This document shows, one piece after another, positions 460 to 51,668 of a stretch of 60,712 nucleotides of DNA. Both the position numbers and the translations under genes were made by a program. The DNA is from Candidatus Nomurabacteria bacterium (lineage in GTDB: Bacteria > Patescibacteriota > Minisyncoccia > Phycocordibacterales > SBAW01): positions 289,900 to 350,611 of the forward strand of contig CALREW010000001.1 in NCBI GenBank assembly GCA_943356415.1, in the 5' to 3' direction. Each line of letters starts with the position of its first letter. Position 1 is the first letter of the stretch. The notes below the pieces were generated by a model. That model had not been told where the DNA came from. It did not search any database and worked only from the letters and a program-made list of their open reading frames with translations.

Positions 460-640
460 GTGATTGTGGCGTCTACCAAACGCCAGTCCACATCGGACGC
501 TTCGGCCTAAGCTGTAACAATGAGAGCCGCGATTCTTTAAAGACAGCGCGGAAACTCGGTGGAACCACGGTCTCTGTAAGGAGAAGATCGTCCGAGTGAA
601 GATGTGACCCATGTCGTGTCTTCGCTCGGACGTTTTTATT
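460..640 (+). ncRNA. T-box riboswitch (Thr specifier ACC) with antiterminator and intrinsic terminator
   Basis: T-box sequence CTCGG-TGGAACC-ACG (555-568) pairs with CGT-CCGAG (589-596). The mutually exclusive terminator is CGTCCGAGTGAAGA...TCTTCGCTCGGACG-TTTTT (589-637). Stem III-like hairpin at 528-550 is preceded by AATGAGAG. Hairpin TGGCGT-ctACCaa-ACGCCA (467-485) displays a Thr codon. The element lies directly upstream of thrS. Confidence 0.85.
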
Positions 641-2439: not shown

Positions 2440-4104
2440 TTACAGCATCGTTGCACGGTGTATCTGCGAGAGGATGAAATCATCCGCATGACCAACCGTA
2501 CGCTTTACCGCCGCAACTGCTGCAGTTACTGGCACTGCAACTTCATGCACTATCTCTGCAACCGTGTCTCCAACCGCGTGTTCGGTTGCAGCAATTTTCT
2601 CACTGAGCACTGAACCCTTTACGCCAAGCGCCTTAACGAGGGCGATTTTTGCAGAGGTGTATTCAGACCCATAGGAGCGATCGACTGCAGAAGCCAGCGC
2701 ATCGATAAGCTTCTCTACTTCACTGTTGCTCATCGAAGAGATGGCTGCGGCCGTGTGCTCGTTTGGCGTACCAGTATTGTCGATGCGGCAACGGTAGGCG
2801 TTATCAAGCTCACACACCGTCTTGGTCATGAAGTCTTCAGCAGATTTCTGCGTAACGCGAAGATTGCGGAGGAAGTCGAATGCTTTTTCACTCTGACCGT
2901 TTGCAATCCAGCTAATGAAAAGCGGAACTGCAGAAACATAGTCAGACGCCTCCGATGCACGCGACGCAGCAATGCTTACTGGCGTGCGGACAATTGGTTC
3001 CTCAACGCGAGGTGCAACCGGTGCAGTGCGGACAGGTGCCGTGTATGCAGGACGCTCCGTTGCAAGCGTAGAGCGCATCACCTTAATAGGAGACGGCGTC
3101 ACGCTTGAGACGTGGGTCATAGCAGATGCGTGTGTGTCGTGCTCATCTTCTGCAGCATCGAAGTGCGGCACGGTTACAGCTGAACTGCCGTTTATGTATT
3201 GCTCAACAAAACGCATCGGAAGGCGCTTTACGGCAACGAGATAGGCAACGACTGCAGAGAACGCAATGAGGAACATCCAGAAGAGTGCAACGCCAAGCGG
3301 ACCTGCTTCATACCCGGTATATGGTATTTGGCTCAGTGTCACGAATGCGAGTGGCTGCTCTCCCGGTTTATGGAAGAGAAAAACGTTTGGCGAATTGAGA
3401 CCGCCACCGCAACTAGAGCCGGAGCACGGCGGAGGGGTGCAGCTAGAGCCCGAGCACGGAGGGGTACAACTTGAACCAACGCAAGGTACCGAGCTCAGCG
3501 TAATAGTTGCAGCACAGTTAACCGTACCAGCGGGGCCAGTAAAGGTTGCAGTGTAAGTAGTCGTAGCATTTACCGTAACGGTTTGAGAACCGTTCGTTGC
3601 AATTGCTCCACCTGGTGAAAGTGTTGCACCAGTTGCACCCGTGCTCGTCCACGTAAGTGTCGCCGTTCCACCTGGAGCAACAATGCTTGCTGAAGGCGTA
3701 AGCGTACAAATAATGCCTGGAGGAGGCGGAACACAGTTACCGCTCGAGTCGATGATAAGACCTGCGGGCACCGAGGACTGCACACCTGCGATATTCGGAC
3801 AGTAGTCCGGAGGAGGAGGCGGGGGTGGGGGCGGAGGAGGCGGGGGTGGAGCGCCGCCACCACCGGAGTCACCACCACCTCCACCGCCAGTATCACCACC
3901 ACCGCAACAACCACCACCGTCACCGCCACCAGCGCCGTCGCCACCGCCGTCGCCACCAAAGGCCTGTGCGGTCGATGTTTCAAAACCAAACATGGGCGCA
4001 ACCGTGCGATCAACAACGACAAAAGCCACGAGAGCAAAAAGTGCTATCGCGAAAGTAAGGCCGAGGGCCTTAAAAATGAGTGTTGAATGGCTCTGTGCGG
4101 TCAT
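2440..4104 (-). CDS. Surface protein: signal peptide, Gly-rich and poly-Pro linkers, Cys-containing Ig-like segment, IPYTG motif + TM helix, C-terminal cytoplasmic domain
   Basis: Start at MTAQ (4104), since the promoter -10 overlaps the upstream ATG. Contains GGDGGG tract, P14 tract, DYCPNIAGVQ motif, SQIPYTG followed by a hydrophobic helix and KR. Confidence 0.8.
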   Translation of the reverse strand: MTAQSHSTLIFKALGLTFAIALFALVAFVVVDRTVAPMFGFETSTAQAFGGDGGGDGAGGGDGGGCCGGGDTGGGGGGDSGGGGAPPPPPPPPPPPPPPDYCPNIAGVQSSVPAGLIIDSSGNCVPPPPGIICTLTPSASIVAPGGTATLTWTSTGATGATLSPGGAIATNGSQTVTVNATTTYTATFTGPAGTVNCAATITLSSVPCVGSSCTPPCSGSSCTPPPCSGSSCGGGLNSPNVFLFHKPGEQPLAFVTLSQIPYTGYEAGPLGVALFWMFLIAFSAVVAYLVAVKRLPMRFVEQYINGSSAVTVPHFDAAEDEHDTHASAMTHVSSVTPSPIKVMRSTLATERPAYTAPVRTAPVAPRVEEPIVRTPVSIAASRASEASDYVSAVPLFISWIANGQSEKAFDFLRNLRVTQKSAEDFMTKTVCELDNAYRCRIDNTGTPNEHTAAAISSMSNSEVEKLIDALASAVDRSYGSEYTSAKIALVKALGVKGSVLSEKIAATEHAVGDTVAEIVHEVAVPVTAAVAAVKRTVGHADDFILSQIHRATML

Positions 4105-4129
4105 AATGCGGCGTGTGATTAACGAGACC

Positions 4130-4158
4130 ATAATATCAGGCTTAATAAGAAATGTCAA
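4130..4158 (-). promoter_or_regulatory. Sigma70-type promoter
   Basis: TTGACA-17 bp-TATTAT on minus strand, about 20 nt leader before ATG 4104. Confidence 0.8.
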
Positions 4159-4225
4159 TACCCTGCCCGGTTCATTCTTCACTACTACAAATACCACTCT
4201 GAGCATGAATTACTAGTGAAAATGG

Positions 4226-11224: not shown

Positions 11225-13120
11225 TCAACGTATTTCGTAGCCCTCCCCCGTGAGCGCTGCGTAGACTCCTTCCATTGCCGCATTTGCCTCTTCGTCCGTA
11301 AGCGTGCGGTCGTTGGCCTGAAAGATAACGCGGAAGCCATAAGAGATTTTGTCTCCCTTTTCGAAGCGATCAAACACGCCGACAAGAACCGCGAGCGGAC
11401 CTGCCGCATCGCCTATCATCTCAAACGGTTTTTCTGGCCCCGTACCTACCGGTGCCCAAAATGCGACATCGCGTGTGATGAACGGATAGCGGGAAAATGG
11501 GCGGTACCGCACATCACCGAGGGTCGGTAATTCTTTGTACGAAAGCGGATCTGGCGCTTGCATAACAAACGAATCAAAATCGAAATTTACAATCGCTGCA
11601 TCAGGAATCTCAGACGGCTGTTTTGCATCAAACTCTTTGATAAGTTCCGAGAGAAACACGCTTGCCTTTGGTGTCGTCTTGCCGCCAAGCGTGCCGAGTA
11701 CCAACACCATTTTCTCTTCCCCGTTTTTCCATACGGTTCCAATCTCAAAGAGCCGTGCATCTGGCACACCAAGCAAATCTCGGTTGCGATAATTTGTCTC
11801 AAGCGCTTCCTGTAAGTTCGGCCACACCTCTGAGCGCAGATAGGGCCTGTCGCTATCTACTTTATTGAGCACTTGGCGCTCACCGTTTAAAACGAAGACA
11901 CTCGTATATATTTCGGAAAATCCTTTGCTTGCCAACCACTCCCGTACACGGTCTATGTAGTAGAAACGTTTGTTGATGGCAGGAGCTACCGGTAAAGGTT
12001 CTGGCACAACGGTCGGTATCTTGTCATACCCGTATAGACGCCCGATATCTGCAACCACATCCTCAGGTATGGTCATGTCCAAACGTTCAAATGGAACTTC
12101 AACACTGAAGCGCCCGCCATTGTTGGTGTGGTTCCAAGCAAATCGCTTAATAAGACTTTCAACATCTCCGTCATTAAGCGACGTACCGAAAAGCCGATTG
12201 ACGTCCCCAGCTGTTACCTCAACCTGCTTTAGCTCAGGCTTGTTTGGGTATTCATCGACAAATCCAACCAACTCCCCGCCAGCCAGCTTCTGTATTAACT
12301 CGATAGCCGCAGAAGCCCCATACCCTGCAAGTTCAGGCGATATGACATTTTCATAACGCACCGAAGCGTCGGTACGTAGGTTGAGCGCTCTGCTCGTCCT
12401 GCGCGTCACCACACCGTCGAAGTTCGCGGACTCAAGGATGATGTCAGTTGTCGTTTCGGTAATGCCTGCGGGCGCGCCGCCCTTAACTCCCGCCAAACCA
12501 ATTGCCGCTCCATTGTGAGCATCGCAAATAACGAGCATCGAGTCTGCGAGTGTGTACTCCTTACCATCAAGTGCGAGCATTTTCTCACCTTCCTTTGCCT
12601 TGCGTACTGAGATGGCGTAGGTGCCATTGCGTTCGGTCATCTTGCCAGCATCGAACGCATGGAGCGGCTGTCCCATGTTGAACATCACGAAGTTCGTGGC
12701 ATCAACAACGTTGTTGACCGAGCGCTGCCCCATAGAAGCAAGGCGCTCGACCAACCACGCAGGCGACGGTCCTACTTTGACACCTCGCACATGCGCCGCA
12801 ACATAGCGCGCACAAAGCGTTGGTTCCTCAATAGTTACTTTTACGCTATCAGTCAGAGGCGAGAGGCTCGGCGGCACACCGAGCGGATCACTTGAAAGCG
12901 GCATATTCAAAATGGCCGAGACTTCTTTTGCAACACCGCGATACGAAAGGCAGTCGTGGGTGCGGTCTGGCAATACTTTGACGTCGAGTACCGAGTCGCT
13001 ACCGATCTCTTCTACCCCATCTATCTCAAATGCATGGAACGTTATGGCGCGAGAAAGTTCCTCAACCGATGGCAGCGGCGCATCAAAATACTTCTGTAAC
13101 CAAGCGTAAGAAATTTTCAT
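11225..13120 (-). CDS. pheT: Phenylalanyl-tRNA synthetase beta subunit (short, no B2 OB-fold)
   Basis: PDRTHDCLSYRG, NNVVDATN, GQPLHAFD, ILESANF, RTDASVRYE, C-terminal anticodon-binding (SRYP..RDVAF, RTLTDEE). Confidence 0.96.
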   Translation of the reverse strand: MKISYAWLQKYFDAPLPSVEELSRAITFHAFEIDGVEEIGSDSVLDVKVLPDRTHDCLSYRGVAKEVSAILNMPLSSDPLGVPPSLSPLTDSVKVTIEEPTLCARYVAAHVRGVKVGPSPAWLVERLASMGQRSVNNVVDATNFVMFNMGQPLHAFDAGKMTERNGTYAISVRKAKEGEKMLALDGKEYTLADSMLVICDAHNGAAIGLAGVKGGAPAGITETTTDIILESANFDGVVTRRTSRALNLRTDASVRYENVISPELAGYGASAAIELIQKLAGGELVGFVDEYPNKPELKQVEVTAGDVNRLFGTSLNDGDVESLIKRFAWNHTNNGGRFSVEVPFERLDMTIPEDVVADIGRLYGYDKIPTVVPEPLPVAPAINKRFYYIDRVREWLASKGFSEIYTSVFVLNGERQVLNKVDSDRPYLRSEVWPNLQEALETNYRNRDLLGVPDARLFEIGTVWKNGEEKMVLVLGTLGGKTTPKASVFLSELIKEFDAKQPSEIPDAAIVNFDFDSFVMQAPDPLSYKELPTLGDVRYRPFSRYPFITRDVAFWAPVGTGPEKPFEMIGDAAGPLAVLVGVFDRFEKGDKISYGFRVIFQANDRTLTDEEANAAMEGVYAALTGEGYEIR

Positions 13121-13122
13121 AG

Positions 13123-13872
13123 TTAAAACTGGTTGATGAAGCGCAGATCAGCCGAGTGCATCAAACGCACATCATCGATACCGAAGCGGAGCATGGCCAA
13201 GCGGTCTATGCCCATACCAAACGCAAACCCAGTGTATTTCTCTGGGTCTACACCTGCCGCACGAAGTACGTTGGGGTGTATCATGCCCGCGCCCATTATT
13301 TCTATCCAACGATCTTTCAACTTCTCAGGCACATTTGAACCCGTGAGGCGCATATCGACTTCAGCTCCCGGCTCAACAAATGGAAAGAAACTGGGGCGCA
13401 GACGTACCTCAACTGAACCTTTGAAAAGCTCGGTAAAGTACTGTGCAAGTACGCCGCGCAAATGCCCCATGTGCACGCCTTCTCCAACCATGAGTCCTTC
13501 AAGTTGGAAAAATTCTGCTTCATGTGTGATATCCGTTGCTTCATTGCGAAAGACTTTGCCAGGAACAATGATGCGATACGGCGGCTTAATCCCCGCTTTC
13601 ATCTGCGCTTCCATATAGCGCACCTGCACGTTACTGGTGTGCGTGCGCAGCACATACCCGGGAGCGTCTTTGATAAAGAACGTGTCCTGCATATCTCGCG
13701 CAGGATGGTCTTTGGGGACGTTTAGCGCATCGAAGTTATAGTGCTCGCTCTCCAAAAGTGGCCCTTCAGCAAAGGCAAAACCCATCTTGGCGAAGATCTG
13801 ATGCGTCTCGCGTATAAGCGAGGAAATAGGGTGCAAATGCCCCTTAGGAGCCTCCGTTCCGGCCACTTCCAT
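13123..13872 (-). CDS. pheS: Phenylalanyl-tRNA synthetase alpha subunit (no N-terminal coiled coil)
   Basis: GHLHP, NFDALN, HPARDMQDTF, LRTHTS, RPSFFPFVEP, GFAFGMGIDR. Confidence 0.97.
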   Translation of the reverse strand: MEVAGTEAPKGHLHPISSLIRETHQIFAKMGFAFAEGPLLESEHYNFDALNVPKDHPARDMQDTFFIKDAPGYVLRTHTSNVQVRYMEAQMKAGIKPPYRIIVPGKVFRNEATDITHEAEFFQLEGLMVGEGVHMGHLRGVLAQYFTELFKGSVEVRLRPSFFPFVEPGAEVDMRLTGSNVPEKLKDRWIEIMGAGMIHPNVLRAAGVDPEKYTGFAFGMGIDRLAMLRFGIDDVRLMHSADLRFINQF

Positions 13873-20942: not shown

Positions 20943-21018
20943 TGGAGCCGCCTCTCGGGCTCGAACCGAGGACCCTCACTTTACAAAAGTGGCGCTCTAC
21001 CAACTGAGCTAAGGCGGC
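20943..21018 (-). tRNA. tRNA-Thr: tRNA-Thr (anticodon TGT), CCA encoded, discriminator U73
   Basis: 76-nt cloverleaf GCCGCCT...AGGCGGC-TCCA; D-arm AGCTCAGTTGGTAGAGC; loop TT-TGT-AA; T-arm GGTTCGAGCC. Confidence 0.97.
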
Positions 21019-37548: not shown

Positions 37549-39060
37549 TTAGAGACCTCTCCGTGGATCTTCGCAGTAAGGACGGTATTTCTCATCAATG
37601 GTAGGACACACGTTTTGGTACTTCTCAGGTGCATACACAGATTTTGCCGTAGCAAACACCGCACGCACACATCCTATACGCTCATCCTCGGTAAGGGAGG
37701 CTTGCGAGCAGAATCGAAGTGCGATGCGGTACTCATTCCCCACGGTTAATCGCTCAAGAATGCCGGTGGGGATTCCGGTGATGCACGGGTCGACAAGATC
37801 CGACCGAGCACCGTGGCATGCATTAACAATCGATGCAAAAGCATCGGTCGAAAAATCCCTCATTGTAACGCCAAGGACGCGGGAGATCCCCTCCATGGCC
37901 AATCTTGAGTCAATTCGATTTTCGATACGTTCAACAAGGATTATCGACTTAGTGAAATCCGACCCGGTCTGCCTGAACACAGGCAGATTCATCTCGGAGA
38001 GGCATGGGGTTCGTATCCTACTCTCCTTCCAAGATGCACATACGCCATACAGATCGGCAACTGCAAGACGTAGACCGTATGCGTTGTTTATGTACAACAG
38101 GGCAAGAGAATCGAACGCGCCTGAAGCGCATCTGAAGAAATGTGGTTCAGTCGGATCAACACGTTCGCACAGCGCAAGTCCAGGTGCGATAAGTTTCTTT
38201 GGATCTTCCCAATCTCGTGGGTCAGCACCATCGACCGCGCCATGGCCGATTCCGTGATAACAGGCGCCTTCCACATTTCCTGCACCACCAGAGAGCGAAC
38301 GTGCCGCTTCAGCGCAAAAGCGCTTTGCTGCAGCGACATCGCCTGACTCCTGCAACATCGTTTCCATGAACCCATGATAGAACCCGAATCCGCAGTATGA
38401 AGCCTTATCCAAAAGCGGCATTGTCCCCTCCCGTGCAAATATCCGATACGCCGCTTCGCCAAGTGTATGGGCCGATGCGTGACACCAATCAGCGAACGCT
38501 GGATTTGTCTCATAGAGGCGCGACATTTCATTGAGCGCGGCTTCAAGCCCACGGTCAGCGAGTACGCCATTGATATGCTCCGCAAAACATTCGCCCGTGG
38601 GAGCATCCTTGTCCGTACACGTTTTTTGTACAACCGCCCCTCGTTGGTCAAGAACGATTATTTCTCCAACACGGCCAGGAACGAGGTGGTCATGGTATTG
38701 CCACAGACCGGGCGTAATAAACGTAAATGTCCAAGTGTCTCCAGGCGGTACCGGCCTCCTTGGATCAAAAGCGGCATAAATATTGTGCGTGGGATGGGGA
38801 TCAGATGCAGGCCACGCTTCTTTTCCTGTCGCATTCACAAACTGAACAGTGTCTCCCTGCTTTACGACGAGGCGTTGCGGGGAAAAGCCTTCTTCGGTGA
38901 GCGTAACGGTCCTGCCCTCAGAGAGCGTGTACTGGTCACCCGCTGAGAAAAGCGAGCTCCTGATGCCAGAAGCAAAGTAGAGAAGCGCGATGAGGACCGC
39001 TAGTGCACAAATGGAAACTGGGAGAGTCTTTTGCTTCCATATGGAGGAAATCAAGGTCAT
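37549..39060 (-). CDS. Cupredoxin-like domain + Cys/His-motif domain protein (paralogue 1)
   Basis: TM; FSP..L.V..GD.V.F.N, WPASDPHPTH, G.WQYHDH; WCHASAH.LG, CGFGFYHG, CYHGIGHG, CASGAF. Confidence 0.8.
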   Translation of the reverse strand: MTLISSIWKQKTLPVSICALAVLIALLYFASGIRSSLFSAGDQYTLSEGRTVTLTEEGFSPQRLVVKQGDTVQFVNATGKEAWPASDPHPTHNIYAAFDPRRPVPPGDTWTFTFITPGLWQYHDHLVPGRVGEIIVLDQRGAVVQKTCTDKDAPTGECFAEHINGVLADRGLEAALNEMSRLYETNPAFADWCHASAHTLGEAAYRIFAREGTMPLLDKASYCGFGFYHGFMETMLQESGDVAAAKRFCAEAARSLSGGAGNVEGACYHGIGHGAVDGADPRDWEDPKKLIAPGLALCERVDPTEPHFFRCASGAFDSLALLYINNAYGLRLAVADLYGVCASWKESRIRTPCLSEMNLPVFRQTGSDFTKSIILVERIENRIDSRLAMEGISRVLGVTMRDFSTDAFASIVNACHGARSDLVDPCITGIPTGILERLTVGNEYRIALRFCSQASLTEDERIGCVRAVFATAKSVYAPEKYQNVCPTIDEKYRPYCEDPRRGL

Positions 39061-46793: not shown

Positions 46794-46982
46794 CTAATAG
46801 ATTCCTCCGCACCAGATCTGATATACCCTATTAAATTTTTCTGCGTGCACTTCTTCTCCACTCGTCATTACTCCAAGCTCTGGATCGGTACAGTTAAGAA
46901 GCTGTTCTTGTTTTGTGGGAAAAGAACCCAATCCAACAATCGAAAAAAGGAGAGCAACTGCCGTGAGTACTTTCTTTTGCAT
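46794..46982 (-). CDS. Small exported peptide, copy A (62 aa, ends RVYQIWCGGIY)
   Basis: Hydrophobic N-terminus, LGSF, L.CT.PE and C-terminal CGGIY are conserved with 59174..59371; TATACT 9 nt upstream. Confidence 0.8.
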   Translation of the reverse strand: MQKKVLTAVALLFSIVGLGSFPTKQEQLLNCTDPELGVMTSGEEVHAEKFNRVYQIWCGGIY

Positions 46983-47067
46983 GTGTATTTCTAGTATACA
47001 GAAAGTGCTCACTCCTATCTACTTACCGATTCTTTCCGCCAGGACAGAGCATCGGTATACTTCGCTC

Positions 47068-48669
47068 ATGGACAACGCATGGCCTTTCTGGCTTCGCACC
47101 GCTCTGATTCTTGCCGCAGCGGCGCTCTTCTTCTATCTACTCCACGGACACACGCCTCTGCAGCAACCTGGATTGGAAGGGTATATCGGCATACACGAGC
47201 ACAATCCGATGCTCGCATTCCCTGGAACTTCACTTCCTGACATGCAACTCGCCGTGGATGAACTCTCGATTAGCGCTAAAGCGGCGGTCTTGCCTTTTCG
47301 GGACGATCCGAGCGGGATTCTCCATACGGAGACCTACCCGGTCGCTTTCCTGATGGCGATACCAAATACCGAGAGAGCTCGGCGGACGATGCTTTCAACG
47401 CGTACAGAGCAGAGCGCAGAGACATACCACAAAACACTGCTCTCTCTCATCGAAGCTTACGAGGAGGCACTTTCGCAGGCGATCACCTTGCTTTCAACCG
47501 GGACGCCCACCGTGCTTTCTTCTTTTATGGGCACGAGTGATTCAGCACATATCGCGAAAATCTTGCGCGAGGGTCAAAACACGCTCACGCAAATGAAGAT
47601 GGAGGAGATGCGCAGGCACTCGTGCGCAACAGGAGGAGGTACGGCCTGCAGTGATCGACCATACTGGGACAATGTGCCGATGTACGCGACTAAATCTACG
47701 CTGACGCCTGCAACGCCATTACCAGACGACATTGTTTTGAAACGTGATGCCCTAAGAAAGTACGCATCGCACTCTGGCGTATCAATGGAGGACGTACACA
47801 CCTTCGAACTATCCGATTCCTCCTGTTATCCTTCCTACGCTCCAATCTACTACGACGTATCCACAAATCGATCGACTCTCTCCTCCGCTACCATGGCCCA
47901 TATCACCTTGTTGAGCGATGTTTTCTTCTACGATCTCGAGAAGATCCGTGGGGCATTCAGCCGCGCACTGTATCAAGCTGGTAGCCCGTATTCCTATCAG
48001 CCATTTAATGCATATATCTGCCAGGATTCAGGAGAAGAGTTCGGCGACTTGCTCGCCATGCGTTATGCCCGCAATGAGCTGGCGGCGCATCCTATAACAG
48101 CGGCAAGCAATGACACAAAGTTATTGGACGAGCTCCTCGCCGCACAAAAAGAATTCCTGGCTGAAAATCCGACACGCGAAGTGTCCTACCGACATCTTAT
48201 GTCAGAGGCGGAACGCCTCTTGCGTATCAAAGACGCCAAGCTCGTCGAGCTTCTCGGATCACAAGAGCGTGTTACGGCCTTACGAGAGCTTGCACTTAGT
48301 GCTCGAACACGCAGCGCAGGACTCGAGCTTGTTGTAGGTTATTTTGACGATATGCAGGCAGGCTCATATATGACCGCCCGCTTTGACGCGTATCGGACTA
48401 ACGTTTTTGCGCTGCTCCGATCAGGCATATCCCCACTCTTACTTGTAGCCAACGAGACCGGACCATTCAAAAAGAGTACGTCTCTCTTATCCAACGTTTC
48501 CAAAGAAGAGCTTGCACCAACTGATTATTCCCTGCTCTCATACAATCGCGATTTACGCGAACGCTATACACTCGAAAAATTGCTTTCGTTCCATCTCATC
48601 GCTCGCGAACAAGTCATAGAACCAATCGTCAAAGATCTTACCGCCCGTCGGGCGGCACTTTCTCACTGA
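47068..48669 (+). CDS. Large membrane-anchored hypothetical protein (paralogue X1)
   Basis: Start at MDNA (47068) after TATACT; shares AFPG, ELS.S.CYPS, FYDL and YSYQPFNAY.C.D.GE with 49932..51668. Confidence 0.8.
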   Translation: MDNAWPFWLRTALILAAAALFFYLLHGHTPLQQPGLEGYIGIHEHNPMLAFPGTSLPDMQLAVDELSISAKAAVLPFRDDPSGILHTETYPVAFLMAIPNTERARRTMLSTRTEQSAETYHKTLLSLIEAYEEALSQAITLLSTGTPTVLSSFMGTSDSAHIAKILREGQNTLTQMKMEEMRRHSCATGGGTACSDRPYWDNVPMYATKSTLTPATPLPDDIVLKRDALRKYASHSGVSMEDVHTFELSDSSCYPSYAPIYYDVSTNRSTLSSATMAHITLLSDVFFYDLEKIRGAFSRALYQAGSPYSYQPFNAYICQDSGEEFGDLLAMRYARNELAAHPITAASNDTKLLDELLAAQKEFLAENPTREVSYRHLMSEAERLLRIKDAKLVELLGSQERVTALRELALSARTRSAGLELVVGYFDDMQAGSYMTARFDAYRTNVFALLRSGISPLLLVANETGPFKKSTSLLSNVSKEELAPTDYSLLSYNRDLRERYTLEKLLSFHLIAREQVIEPIVKDLTARRAALSH

Positions 48670-49874
48670 CTATTTGGAGATCGCACCGAAGCACATTTTA
48701 GAGCGTACGGTGGCGGAAGCTTGGCACACAATTCAAGGCGTAGATGTTCTTCCTGCATAAAGGAGTATGGAATCATAATTGAAAGCGCCTGATAGCACTG
48801 GTCACCAACGCCCGCTGTTGCGGCACGTCCGCAGTAGGTAAACGATTGATCATAGTCGTGTCCGGCCATGAACGCATAGGAACCGGCAGATGCGTAGCAC
48901 CAGCCTCGTTTCTCCTGCGGGTAGGTAGCGCAATAGGCATCCGCAGCGTCCATATTGAAATAGGTGTCGCGAGCAAAGAGACGAAGTTGGGTGCCTCGAC
49001 ACAAATCTCGGCGCGAAACATCAAGCACGCCACAATCAAGCGGATGCGGCGGGCCCTTGCTTAATTCTTTGTAGAACAAGGATGCGCTTCGCGCGACACA
49101 CGCGGCCTCTACTGCTCCAGAAAATGTTTTGCAAAATGCTCCAACCGTTTCCTTTGTCTGTCCATTGTTTCCAATAAGCGCATAATCTTCCGGTTCATGC
49201 GGTTCAAAAAGTTGCATAAATATTCCGTCGTAACAGGAAAGTTCTTGACCATCCCGCGTAACCCCACCAGCGTCTTTAAAGCGAACTGCTGCACATAGAC
49301 CGATCGACCGCTCAAGCGCTCCGTCGGTGATGAACATGAATAAATGACCCAGTCCGTGGGAACACATAAATAAAACGGCAGGAGAAGACGGCGCCTGCGG
49401 GTCAAAATCACAAAATCCTTGTACCTCCTCTAAGAACGCGGGAACCTTCTCAAGTGCTAAAAAGTCGGTCTTGAAGCGTTCTTGAAATGCTCCATGCAAT
49501 CCTCCGCTTAAGCACACCCCTTGCGGCGTGCGCCGGGCAACCTCTTTCCACTTAGACGGATCCTTTGCAACTTCGGTTGCCCCTAAACGATGTCCAATGT
49601 TGTGACAATATTCGCCGCTGGTATCAAGGCGCTGTATCTCTTCAGCTATCGCAAAAGTGTCTTCAAATGAGACTCCGCGGTCAAGCAACTTTGGAACTTC
49701 ATTCTCGTAACAGAGCGACCGGTTTTGCGCCTGTGCACATTGATCAACCACCGCATGCGCATACCTCTCTAAGGACACCGGAGCGGCACTGTAGACACGC
49801 AACGCCACCATGACTAGTGCCACAATCAAAAAACCTCCCAAAAATGACATCGTTCGTCGTGGATTCACCTTCAT
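48663..49874 (-). CDS. Cys/His-motif exported protein (paralogue 6)
   Basis: Start at MKVN (49874) after TATACT; YCHNIGHRLG, CLSGGLHG, CSHGLGH, CYDGIFM. Confidence 0.8.
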   Translation of the reverse strand: MKVNPRRTMSFLGGFLIVALVMVALRVYSAAPVSLERYAHAVVDQCAQAQNRSLCYENEVPKLLDRGVSFEDTFAIAEEIQRLDTSGEYCHNIGHRLGATEVAKDPSKWKEVARRTPQGVCLSGGLHGAFQERFKTDFLALEKVPAFLEEVQGFCDFDPQAPSSPAVLFMCSHGLGHLFMFITDGALERSIGLCAAVRFKDAGGVTRDGQELSCYDGIFMQLFEPHEPEDYALIGNNGQTKETVGAFCKTFSGAVEAACVARSASLFYKELSKGPPHPLDCGVLDVSRRDLCRGTQLRLFARDTYFNMDAADAYCATYPQEKRGWCYASAGSYAFMAGHDYDQSFTYCGRAATAGVGDQCYQALSIMIPYSFMQEEHLRLELCAKLPPPYALKCASVRSPNSQ

Positions 49875-49931
49875 GTCGACAGTATATCCCTCAGACACAG
49901 CAGCGGGCTCTTTAGTATACTCAGGGACGAA

Positions 49932-51668
49932 ATGAAGGCGACGTACGCCATGCTGGGGTTTCTTGCGATTGTCAGCTTTGCCGTTGCAACGTACGGAATA
50001 GTGAGCCAAGCGCGTTTTTTTCCTTCTGCAATCACATCCAATCCAAAGGATCGTCTTGCTCAGTATGTCGAAGCACATCGACTTGACCCAATATTTGCAT
50101 TCCCGGGCATTGATGTCGAAGCAATGCGACAAGTGGTAAAAGAATTCACGATAAGTGCCCGCGTCGCCATGCCGCCGTACAATAATCAGGAGGCGATACG
50201 GGAATCGCTTTTCCCTTTTCAATTTCTTGCAGCCGTAGCAGACGCAGAGGAAGCCCGCGTCAAGCTTTTTGCGGAGCCTAGTCGTGAACATGCTGATGTC
50301 TATCACCGCTCACTTATGCATCTCATGGAAAACTACAAGGAGGATAGCTCCCACGCGCGCGATATCTTAGAACACGCAAGCACGACAACTCGCATATTCT
50401 TTTTCATCGGAGAGACGAGCCCCGCGCGCATCAAAACCGTACTCGCCGAGGCGGAGGTGCACGCGAATGCCCTTATGGAAAAAGAGGAGCGGCGTTTTGA
50501 TTGTCTTTTGGGTTTAGCCGCACAATGCGAGTCAATCGATTCTCTTATCCTTCAATTTGGCGATATGAGCACCGGGACACGTTTGGATACTTTGCCGACT
50601 GAGAAACTCACTAAAGTCGCCGAGGAAAATTTCAGCACCCTTGCCGCACTCAACTCACAACTTGCGTCAAGCACCCTCGTCGAACTCTCTCATTCTGCCT
50701 GCTATCCGAGCGCGCCTACCTACTACGCAGTAACAACAAAGATATCGAGGCTCTCCGGTCTTCCCTCTGCTGATATCACGTACCTCAACGATCTGTACTT
50801 CTACGATCTCAAGCGTACAAGCAAGCAACCGTACTTTGACGAGCTACAAAAGGCAGGGGCGCAGTACTCATACCAACCATTTAACGCGTATCTTTGTCTT
50901 GATGCTGGGGAAGATATGGGACGTTTAATGACCATTATCCATACGCGCATATCTCTCGCTCACACTCCTTTGAAGGCCCGAGGCGGTTACATTCCACCGT
51001 TGATTAAAGAGGTACTAGAAGCGCAAGAACAATTCCTCGCAGGGACTACCGTGCGCTCAGATGCCTACGATAGGTTGATACGCAACGCATCCCTTGCCGT
51101 ACGAACGTATGGAATGACCGGTGTGTCTTCATATTTTTCTGATGCCACCGCAGGGGAACAACTCGTCGACTTGGTTATACTCTCGAGAACTCAAAGTGCT
51201 GATTTCGAGAAAATAGTCGCCTATTTTGACGACCTGCAAGTAGGAACATTCCTCCCCTATCATTTCAATCCCTCTCCTCTGTATGCGTTCCTCATGACGC
51301 GCGGTGGCCTCTCTCCGCTGCTTGCACTTGAAAACCGAACCGGCGCTCTACCCCAGGCGCTCTCACTTTTGGAGACCAATGTGCCACACAAGAACCCGTA
51401 TGCCTATATGCACATAAGCCTACGCTCTTATGAAAACGACCTTCACGCGACACGTGCGCGTGGCACGCTGATACAGACCCTCCTTGACGAACGTCGCGCG
51501 CACGACAAAGCATTCGGGTTGCTCATAAGCGATCTACAAATTGCACGACAATCGTATAAAAAAATGCTTGAAACATGCGGCGGGTCCGTGGCACTACATA
51601 CTGAAGAATCACCTATCCGACGAATCTGGAATATGACATGCACTCCAGCTCCCACACCTGGCTCTTAG
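49932..51668 (+). CDS. Large membrane-anchored hypothetical protein (paralogue X2)
   Basis: Co-linear homology with 47068..48669; N-terminal TM. Confidence 0.8.
   Translation: MKATYAMLGFLAIVSFAVATYGIVSQARFFPSAITSNPKDRLAQYVEAHRLDPIFAFPGIDVEAMRQVVKEFTISARVAMPPYNNQEAIRESLFPFQFLAAVADAEEARVKLFAEPSREHADVYHRSLMHLMENYKEDSSHARDILEHASTTTRIFFFIGETSPARIKTVLAEAEVHANALMEKEERRFDCLLGLAAQCESIDSLILQFGDMSTGTRLDTLPTEKLTKVAEENFSTLAALNSQLASSTLVELSHSACYPSAPTYYAVTTKISRLSGLPSADITYLNDLYFYDLKRTSKQPYFDELQKAGAQYSYQPFNAYLCLDAGEDMGRLMTIIHTRISLAHTPLKARGGYIPPLIKEVLEAQEQFLAGTTVRSDAYDRLIRNASLAVRTYGMTGVSSYFSDATAGEQLVDLVILSRTQSADFEKIVAYFDDLQVGTFLPYHFNPSPLYAFLMTRGGLSPLLALENRTGALPQALSLLETNVPHKNPYAYMHISLRSYENDLHATRARGTLIQTLLDERRAHDKAFGLLISDLQIARQSYKKMLETCGGSVALHTEESPIRRIWNMTCTPAPTPGS

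Follow-up and report, generated by a model that had tools for sequence, protein, structure and literature searches.

T-boxes serve as a model for how one RNA can recognize both the identity and the charging state of another, the tRNA. In their classical transcriptional form (Rfam family RF00230; e.g., the Bacillus subtilis thrS, tyrS and glyQS leaders), a Stem I of about 90 nt includes a K-turn, an internal loop with the specifier, and a platform of AG bulge and distal loop that receives the tRNA elbow. The specifier matches the aminoacyl-tRNA synthetase under control and is followed by a purine, the UGGN portion of a 7-nt T-box bulge between helices A1 and A2 matches the discriminator base of the tRNA, Stem III has purine-rich flanks, and an intrinsic terminator competes with the antiterminator. 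The threonine specifier in the thrS and thrZ leaders of B. subtilis is ACC. Here, we describe the leader of thrS, the gene for threonyl-tRNA synthetase (ThrRS), on a 60,712-nucleotide stretch of DNA from Candidatus Nomurabacteria bacterium (assembly GCA_943356415.1, contig CALREW010000001.1, positions 289,900 to 350,611 of the forward strand; hereafter the window). Specifier, bulge, Stem III, and competing terminator all recur in this leader; the long Stem I, the K-turn, the specifier internal loop, and the elbow platform are all missing. Judged from its sequence, the leader is very probably a T-box-type, tRNA-Thr-sensing transcription attenuator of thrS.

An ultrashort Stem I has been described as a feature of translational, mostly actinobacterial T-boxes, in which it goes together with control that is slow and reversible and with a Stem II domain that is essential; transcriptional T-boxes are held to need a long Stem I with its elbow-binding platform, and Stem II is needed when Stem I is short (PMC7583486). 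In the actinobacterial ileS T-boxes (Mycobacterium ileS, PDB 6UFG; PMC7583486, PMC11297988), a very short Stem I without an elbow platform holds the specifier in its apical loop, and a Stem IIA is combined with an F-box (CGUCA in M. tuberculosis, or CCGUUA). These elements regulate ileS translationally through sequestration of the Shine-Dalgarno sequence and depend on a Stem II S-turn and a pseudoknot that Stem IIA/B forms with the linker. T-boxes of the glyQS type are transcriptional, lack the Stem II domain, and run from a decoding element through a short linker to Stem III and the antiterminator; the leader studied here shares all this, whereas glyQS retains the long Stem I in full, K-turn and elbow platform included, and the window leader has a Stem I of just 6 bp set inside a junction. 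In the TBDB database, class II T-boxes were searched only in Actinobacteria and RF00230 was used for class I (PMC7778990), so that a family of thrS T-boxes in the Candidate Phyla Radiation (CPR) would have escaped it. The full-text literature searched (subscription literature not covered) contained nothing relevant on T-boxes or riboswitches together with CPR taxa.

Architecture of the thrS leader

The leader directly precedes thrS, on a sequence from lake and freshwater metagenomes. The features on which the following analysis depends are listed below in window coordinates.

422–449, + strand: sigma-70-type promoter with the −35 box TTGACA (422–427), a 16-nt spacer and the −10 box TAGGAT (444–449); 10 of 12 consensus positions matched
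455–461, + strand: 5' strand of helix P1a, UUACAGU, pairing with 511–517 (core A457–U461 with G511–U515)
462–466, + strand: conserved GAUUG element; G462-A463 unpaired, U464-U465-G466 opposite U508-A509-A510
467–485, + strand: ultrashort Stem I of 6 bp (U467–U472 with A480–A485) with the 7-nt loop CUACCAA (473–479)
486–498, + strand: junction hairpin A, GUCC-ACAUC-GGAC, 4 bp (486–489 with 495–498), at the place expected for Stem II
499–507, + strand: junction hairpin B (G499-C500 with G505-C506, C(UUCG)G tetraloop), at the place expected for Stem IIA, and unpaired C507
508–517, + strand: UAA (508–510), which with C507 gives an F-box-like CUAA, and the 3' strand of P1a, GCUGUAA (511–517)
518–526, + strand: purine-rich linker CAAUGAGAG, whose GAGAG (522–526) aligns to the AGuG of RF00230
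527–553, + strand: Stem III (527–531 with 547–551; inner helix 534–536 with 541–543), then A552-A553
554–597, + strand: antiterminator with A1 (554–559 with 592–597), the bulge UGGAACC (560–566) and A2 (567–575 with 582–591)
589–637, + strand: intrinsic terminator with a 20-bp stem (589–608 with 613–632), loop CCAU and U-run 633–637
655–2388, + strand: thrS, the regulated gene (ThrRS, 577 aa, start ATG 655; Pfam domains tRNA_SAD, tRNA-synt_2b and HGTP_anticodon)
20943–21018, − strand: gene for tRNA-Thr(UGU), which has U73 as its discriminator and an encoded CCA

The 3' half of this leader carries the T-box signature AGGGUGGNACCGCG, with its 7-nt bulge UGGNACC between A1 and A2, in the form of CUCGGUGGAACCACG at positions 555–569; the exact T-box sequence GGTGGNACCRCG occurs once in the 60.7 kb of the window. 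The RRRNG motif defined as preceding Stem III (PMC7778990) is represented by GAGAG, and the AA that belongs on the 3' side of Stem III by nucleotides 552–553. The 3' strands of A2 and A1 run into the 5' arm of the terminator, which shares nucleotides 589–597 with them, and the antiterminator (−15.6 kcal/mol) and the terminator (−30 kcal/mol) are therefore mutually exclusive folds. For the leader as a whole, the z-score of folding is −5.07, and none of 200 shuffled sequences folds as well. A first-pass annotation, made from the letters of the window alone, had proposed the promoter, Stem III, the antiterminator with its UGGAACC bulge, and an overlapping terminator of about 20 bp; each of these was recovered at, or within a few bases of, its proposed position, and the 6-bp hairpin at 467–485 with ACC and a purine in its 7-nt loop is present as described there.

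The search with the Rfam T-box model that had been recommended alongside these proposals did not detect the leader at its threshold. RF00230 gave no match at the gathering threshold, nor at E ≤ 10 on 501 nt; confined to positions 450–640 (191 nt), it returned 18.3 bits against a threshold of 93 (E = 0.024), with only model positions 115–219 aligned. This partial match covers Stem III, the AA, the GGUGGNACCxCG box, and A1/A2, from which it follows that the discriminator half of the leader is canonical and that the decoding half lies outside the model. We reject the cmscan alignment of the Rfam Stem IIA to the specifier hairpin as artefactual: ACC is conserved, and hairpin B with CUAA fits the position and the spacing of Stem IIA and the F-box better.

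A weak partial hit to RF00230 might also be expected of a classical long-Stem-I T-box, or of a translational ileS-like T-box, that has simply been misread. We regard this explanation as hardly credible, since a terminator-like hairpin at 378–398 and the promoter leave a span of only about 100 nt from the transcription start to the antiterminator, the spacing of the −10 box is conserved, and the expression platform consists of a 20-bp stem and a U-run ending 18 nt upstream of the ATG, without a Shine-Dalgarno sequence inside the helix. Transcription probably starts at around 455–457. In the window, 12 nt separate the end of the −10 box from GAUUG, and in 62 of 90 relatives a −10-like box stops 12–15 nt short of this element; by this spacing, the RNA would begin at helix P1 and have no room for a long Stem I, the lack of room having already been noted in the first-pass annotation.

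The decoding domain of the tRNA-sensing attenuator that we propose is compact. The threonine specifier ACC occupies positions 475–477 of the terminal loop of Stem I and is followed by the conserved purine A478. Stem I begins directly after G466, hairpin A directly after Stem I, and the 3' end of the domain pairs back with the very 5' end of the RNA through P1a, a helix that is also predicted in the minimum free energy fold. U464-U465-G466 may extend P1a as a helix P1b with U508-A509-A510, with G462-A463 bulged out; since these bases never vary, a non-Watson-Crick internal loop is equally possible. The invariant GAU opposite UAA is reminiscent of the "UAA/GAN" internal-loop motif. The window leader can be modelled as a four-way junction of P1, Stem I, hairpin A, and hairpin B, with C507 unpaired; RNAalifold suggests an alternative closing pair, G486–C506, that would turn it into a three-way junction.

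This arrangement also accounts for two small hairpins at 486–512 that had been noticed at the place of Stem II/IIA and left unassigned. Both are present (486–489 with 495–498 and 499–500 with 505–506), and their positions fit; nucleotides 508–517, however, belong to the long-range helix P1, and neither hairpin is a Stem II or a Stem IIA/B as these are defined. Likewise, the specifier hairpin exists as claimed but is not free-standing, being one arm of the P1-closed junction. Hairpin A is not assigned as Stem II because it varies in length, is missing in some relatives, and has no Stem II S-turn recognizable by eye. Hairpin B and CUAA may be homologous to Stem IIA and the F-box: the spacing from UAA over 11 nt and AGAG to Stem III is the same as in the consensus sequence of Rfam (UUA, then 11 nt, AGuG, and Stem III). 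By inspection, the UUCG loop of hairpin B has no downstream complement that could form a IIA/B-like pseudoknot, and no G-A/A-G tandem of a K-turn fits in either of the two orientations tried. No elbow-binding platform was found in the leader.

The comparison with the actinobacterial ileS T-boxes drawn in the first-pass annotation thus holds for the apical specifier loop and for nothing else in that annotation. Hairpin B and CUAA do resemble their Stem IIA and F-box in sequence and position, but the nucleotides that follow the F-box are base-paired in P1 with the transcript's 5' end instead of with the IIA loop, a 4-bp hairpin stands at the place of Stem II, and an intrinsic terminator would regulate thrS in a CPR bacterium. 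In contrast to classical T-boxes, it is the long-range helix P1 that closes the decoding domain, and neither a Stem II S-turn nor a IIA/B pseudoknot was found.

A family of thrS leaders in the Candidate Phyla Radiation

A scan by ThrRS similarity, with one genome per species, yielded 80 loci, nearly all of them labelled Patescibacteria/CPR; the best ThrRS identity among these relatives is 63–66%. About 24 of the 80 thrS loci carry a T-box (xGGUGGAACC 100–240 nt upstream of thrS). From an 18-sequence MAFFT alignment (alignment A1, distinct from helix A1) and a hand-written structure we built a covariance model, R1, which scores the window leader at 93.4 bits (E ~ 1e−19) and matches 11 further loci among the 80. 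Members of the junction type are found in the window and at loci L010, L012, L013, L017, L024, L025, L026, L035, L039, and L044; their elements are, in order, GAUUG, a stem enclosing the loop (C/U)UACCAA, a short hairpin or two, CUAA, and the complement of the 5' end. In addition, metagenomes were scanned with the pattern GATTG-N8-ACCAA-N45-75-AA-N4-GGTGGAACC, which retrieved at least 120 stretches; the motif scan and R1 together gave at least about 110 metagenome matches, and about 95% of the motif-scan matches are true members. Five stretches (L102, L113, L172, L192, and L199) are chance motif matches that R1 does not match. In two overlapping locus sets, R1 matched 98 and 94 places, mostly metagenome loci from the motif scan.

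Conservation of the structure was assessed in 94 distinct sequences among the matches listed, to which all counts out of 94 refer. In these, 92.8% of the cells at paired positions are paired, compared with 68.8% after shuffling and at most 46% when the partners are slid against each other, and 21 of the 26 base pairs show compensatory changes. The corresponding values for the 12 protein-selected loci, a set that is free of the ascertainment bias of the search pattern, are 93.7% versus 73.4% and 17 of 26 pairs. All five pairs of the P1a core carry compensatory changes in both sets (e.g., ACAGA/UCUGU, GUAGA/UCUAC, UCAGA/UCUGA, and ACUUG/CAAGU), all six pairs of Stem I covary, and so do A1 and A2, while the bulge UGGAACC is invariant. 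Independently, RNAalifold applied to alignment A1, which had not been fitted to the structure, predicts P1a, Stem I, A1, and A2. The covariation alignment of related thrS leaders that had been proposed as a check on the first-pass annotation therefore gave covarying stems.

The unpaired elements are conserved as well. All 23 protein-selected leaders that have a recognizable Stem I (11 of the junction type and 12 of the K-turn type described below) carry ACC-A in its terminal loop. Conservation of this loop among orthologous leaders had been named beforehand as a point on which the idea of a minimal transcriptional T-box would stand or fall, and together with the covarying stems it supports that idea. 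GAUUG is invariant in the seed alignment A1 and present in 10 of the 12 protein-selected loci; in the metagenome set it is fixed by the search pattern, but its partner CUAA is not. UAA, which lies outside the pattern, is nevertheless found in 93–94 of the 94 sequences, and the nucleotide just 5' of it is C in the listed cases. The helices of the junction abut without linkers, hairpin A starting 0 nt after Stem I in 74 of 94 sequences and the last hairpin ending 0–2 nt before UAA in 72 of 94 (1 nt in 66); the region between Stem I and UAA spans 17–54 nt and contains one or two hairpins.

Expression platforms of the terminator type are the norm of the family, in line with the first-pass annotation: an equivalent terminator, with a 5' arm beginning in the 3' strand of the antiterminator (median −28 kcal/mol), is seen in at least 68 of the 94 relatives, and most of the remaining ones visibly have a terminator, too. 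Of 81 leaders among the matches listed that are followed by at least 400 nt of sequence, 80 precede a ThrRS gene on the same strand. Only thrS-linked copies, with no other specifiers or genes, were found by R1 in searches of 0.42, 0.68, and 0.63 Mb of CPR DNA, the last two of which overlap. Among contigs of close strains, the leader varies only at position 412 in the spacer, at 585, at 609–611 in the terminator loop, and through small deletions at the A2 apex; the variant A585G changes a U-A to a U-G pair and keeps the A2 pairing, and no change falls in the decoding junction, in Stem III, in the bulge, in A1, or in the terminator stems. This pattern, although drawn from a small sample, is consistent with constraint on the leader.

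Stem III is present in 62 of the 94 family members; about 30 do without it and carry "AAAGAACAAA" linkers in its place. This sub-class comprises loci L039, L044, L025, and L035 and about 30 metagenome loci (e.g., L166, L140, and L147); the linker AAAGA(A/C)CAAA directly precedes A1, and the leader measures about 107–120 nt to the end of the antiterminator. Where Stem III is present, many members (L010, L017, L161, L171, L174, and L137) share an apex resembling GGCAUACC; that of the window is different (UUCUUUAAAGA). Two members occur on one contig in two cases. On contig L171, junction-type threonine T-boxes lie at 562–687 and 1485–1646; the first has its own terminator and no obvious open reading frame (ORF) for about 800 nt, and the second precedes thrS. 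On contig L139, copies lie at 533–658 and 973–1103, the second being a weak match (27.7 bits).

The absence of Stem III from about 30 of the 94 members might be viewed, together with the missing classical tRNA-binding modules and the patchy distribution of the family, as a sign of decay. The leader would then be a relic in which the terminator and the T-box sequence persist as a constitutive or otherwise controlled attenuator that no longer senses tRNA, the ACC loop being a coincidence of descent. A divergent member (L030, 1326–1441) would fit this idea; it keeps the canonical discriminator and GAUUG and has no recognizable ACC specifier hairpin, and it may have decayed or may use a different decoding arrangement. 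Decay of the whole family is nonetheless improbable in our view, because ACC-A, UGGA, GAUUG, and CUAA stay invariant while the stems covary over some 100 diverged lineages, and because linkage to thrS is maintained almost throughout the matches listed.

A second thrS leader architecture, of a Saccharimonadia type, was met at loci L027, L052, L055, L056, L059, L060, L062, L070, L078, and L079, which are mostly labelled Saccharibacteria/Saccharimonadales. It shares with the window leader the ACC-A apical loop, the UGGAACC bulge, the terminators, and the regulated gene. It has no P1 junction; the specifier is displayed in a 9-nt loop on a K-turn Stem I, GAGC-NNN-GA-(5 bp)-nUUCACCAA-(5 bp)-GA-GCUC, both stems of which covary by eye. 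This hairpin lies about 70–100 nt upstream of UGGAACC and is followed by one hairpin, AAGAGUAAA, the antiterminator, and the terminator. Model R1 detects these leaders weakly. The P1-closed junction, the family-wide evidence, and this second CPR architecture are what the present analysis adds.

The proposed tRNA ligand and mechanism of attenuation

The bulge sequence UGGA is complementary to U73-CCA of both CPR tRNA-Thr genes at hand, each of which encodes a UGU isoacceptor; one of them is the gene in the window, and the presence of U73 in that tRNA had been pointed out in the first-pass annotation. A perfect match to ACC is offered only by the anticodon GGU. Of the 951 threonine codons in the ORFs of the window, 443 are ACC or ACU, and a GGU-type tRNA is therefore expected elsewhere in the genome. 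It is conceivable, though unlikely, that the leader is a functional T-box whose ligand is tRNA-Thr(UGU), or all threonine isoacceptors, with a C-U mismatch at the third position tolerated for want of a Stem II S-turn that would check G34. UGU is the sole isoacceptor seen (in the window and at L134), and the preference for G34 and a third-position C has been attributed to Stem II contacts (PMC7583486), which were not found in this leader. On the other hand, the third-position C of the specifier is strictly conserved in the protein-selected set, and the codon usage just mentioned speaks for a GGU-type ligand.

Since the regulated gene is thrS and the hairpin at 467–485 has a 7-nt loop of the size of an anticodon loop, one might also think of an operator to which ThrRS binds, as in the autoregulation of E. 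coli thrS, with the hairpin mimicking the anticodon arm of tRNA-Thr. There is very little to recommend this explanation: the loop has ACC, a codon, rather than any of the anticodons GGU, UGU, and CGU, conservation extends to the T-box bulge and to the switch between terminator and antiterminator, and the element does not overlap the start codon, its hairpin being 170 nt upstream of the ATG.

For the tRNA-sensing T-box, we envision the following course of events. After initiation at about 455–457, the first 60 or so nucleotides would fold into a compact junction in which P1 (455–466 with 508–517), with GAUUG and CUAA, closes three arms, one of them being the 6-bp Stem I that displays the threonine codon ACC and a purine in its apical loop. 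The anticodon of a tRNA-Thr, presumably the GGU isoacceptor, would pair with ACC, and if this tRNA is uncharged, its 3' end U73-C-C-A would pair with U560-G-G-A563 of the T-box bulge. Such pairing would stabilize the weak antiterminator (554–597, about −16 kcal/mol) atop Stem III and allow read-through into thrS. With the tRNA charged or absent, the 20-bp terminator (589–632 and its U-run, about −30 kcal/mol) would form, and transcription would stop at about position 637. The P1-closed junction would probably stand in for the platform that takes the tRNA elbow in classical T-boxes and for the contacts made there by Stem II/IIA-B. As a matter of speculation, P1 and Stem I, which share a continuous 5' strand, might stack into a helix of about 16 bp with the codon at its tip, and the 9-nt linker might set the distance from this stacked codon helix to the discriminator.

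Several observations weigh against this interpretation. The elements held necessary for transcriptional T-boxes, i.e., an interdigitated T-loop motif that binds the elbow and a Stem II when Stem I is short, are missing, and the tRNA may therefore be captured too slowly for control during transcription. None of 20 related loci reaches the RF00230 threshold, and the scores of these loci and of the window are far below it. The distribution is patchy, about 56 of the 80 CPR thrS loci being devoid of a T-box, and the two closest ThrRS relatives (L001 and L018, 63–66% identity) are without such a leader in the sequence upstream of position 1501. The metagenome set was selected by a pattern that itself fixes ACC, GAUUG, and UGGAACC. 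The tRNA-Thr(UGU) of the window mismatches the third specifier position, and a tRNA-Thr(GGU) was not found by ARAGORN, which detected two tRNA-Thr genes, in the window and at L134, in all the DNA examined. Finally, no RNA-seq runs containing the sequence were found.

Taken together, it is rather more probable than otherwise, in our assessment, that the junction-type leaders constitute an undescribed structural class of T-boxes in the CPR. In this class, K-turn, elbow platform, the S-turn of Stem II, and IIA/B pseudoknot would give way to a P1-closed decoding domain of about 60 nt in which the specifier is apical and GAUUG and CUAA are invariant; Stem III is gone in a third of the members, and strong terminators would still make the control co-transcriptional.

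Genomic context and significance

The upstream ORF ends with its stop codon at position 352. Between it and the thrS promoter lies the hairpin at 378–398, which is GC-rich, has 7 bp, and is bordered by T-runs on both strands like a bidirectional terminator. The start of thrS at ATG 655 is supported by the alignment of its best relatives from residue 1. The public gene call instead starts at GTG 604, within the terminator stem, and predicts 594 aa; by taking in 604–654, this longer call conceals the terminator and leader from annotation. Like its CPR relatives, the window ThrRS has no N-terminal TGS domain and begins directly at the second additional domain (HxxxH motif). Directly downstream of thrS and convergent with it is the ORF 2440–4206 (− strand), one of four ORFs of 500–590 aa without a Pfam match at E ≤ 0.001, the others being 37549–39060 (− strand), 46915–48669 (+ strand), and 48663–50306 (− strand). 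The window also contains pheT for the beta chain of phenylalanyl-tRNA synthetase (11225–13120, − strand) and a probable pheS (13123–13872, − strand). No T-box precedes these pheST genes, the thrS leader being the sole T-box match of model R1 in the 60.7-kb window.

Standard annotation overlooks these leaders, as they are not called by Rfam and gene callers run thrS into the terminator. An ultrashort Stem I combined with strong terminators and without the usual modules raises the question of how a junction of about 60 nt could capture a tRNA fast enough during transcription. If the proposed class is real, it would contradict the view that terminator-type T-boxes need a long, elbow-binding Stem I for rapid tRNA capture, and it would comprise the smallest natural tRNA-sensing transcriptional switch, with about 107–145 nt to the end of the antiterminator; an element of this compactness could serve as a small tRNA-responsive part. 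The Saccharibacteria, the group to which genomes with the K-turn-type leader are labelled as belonging, include cultivable members. CPR bacteria are thought to have very little regulation; the leaders described here suggest that some of them nevertheless keep an RNA sensor on thrS.

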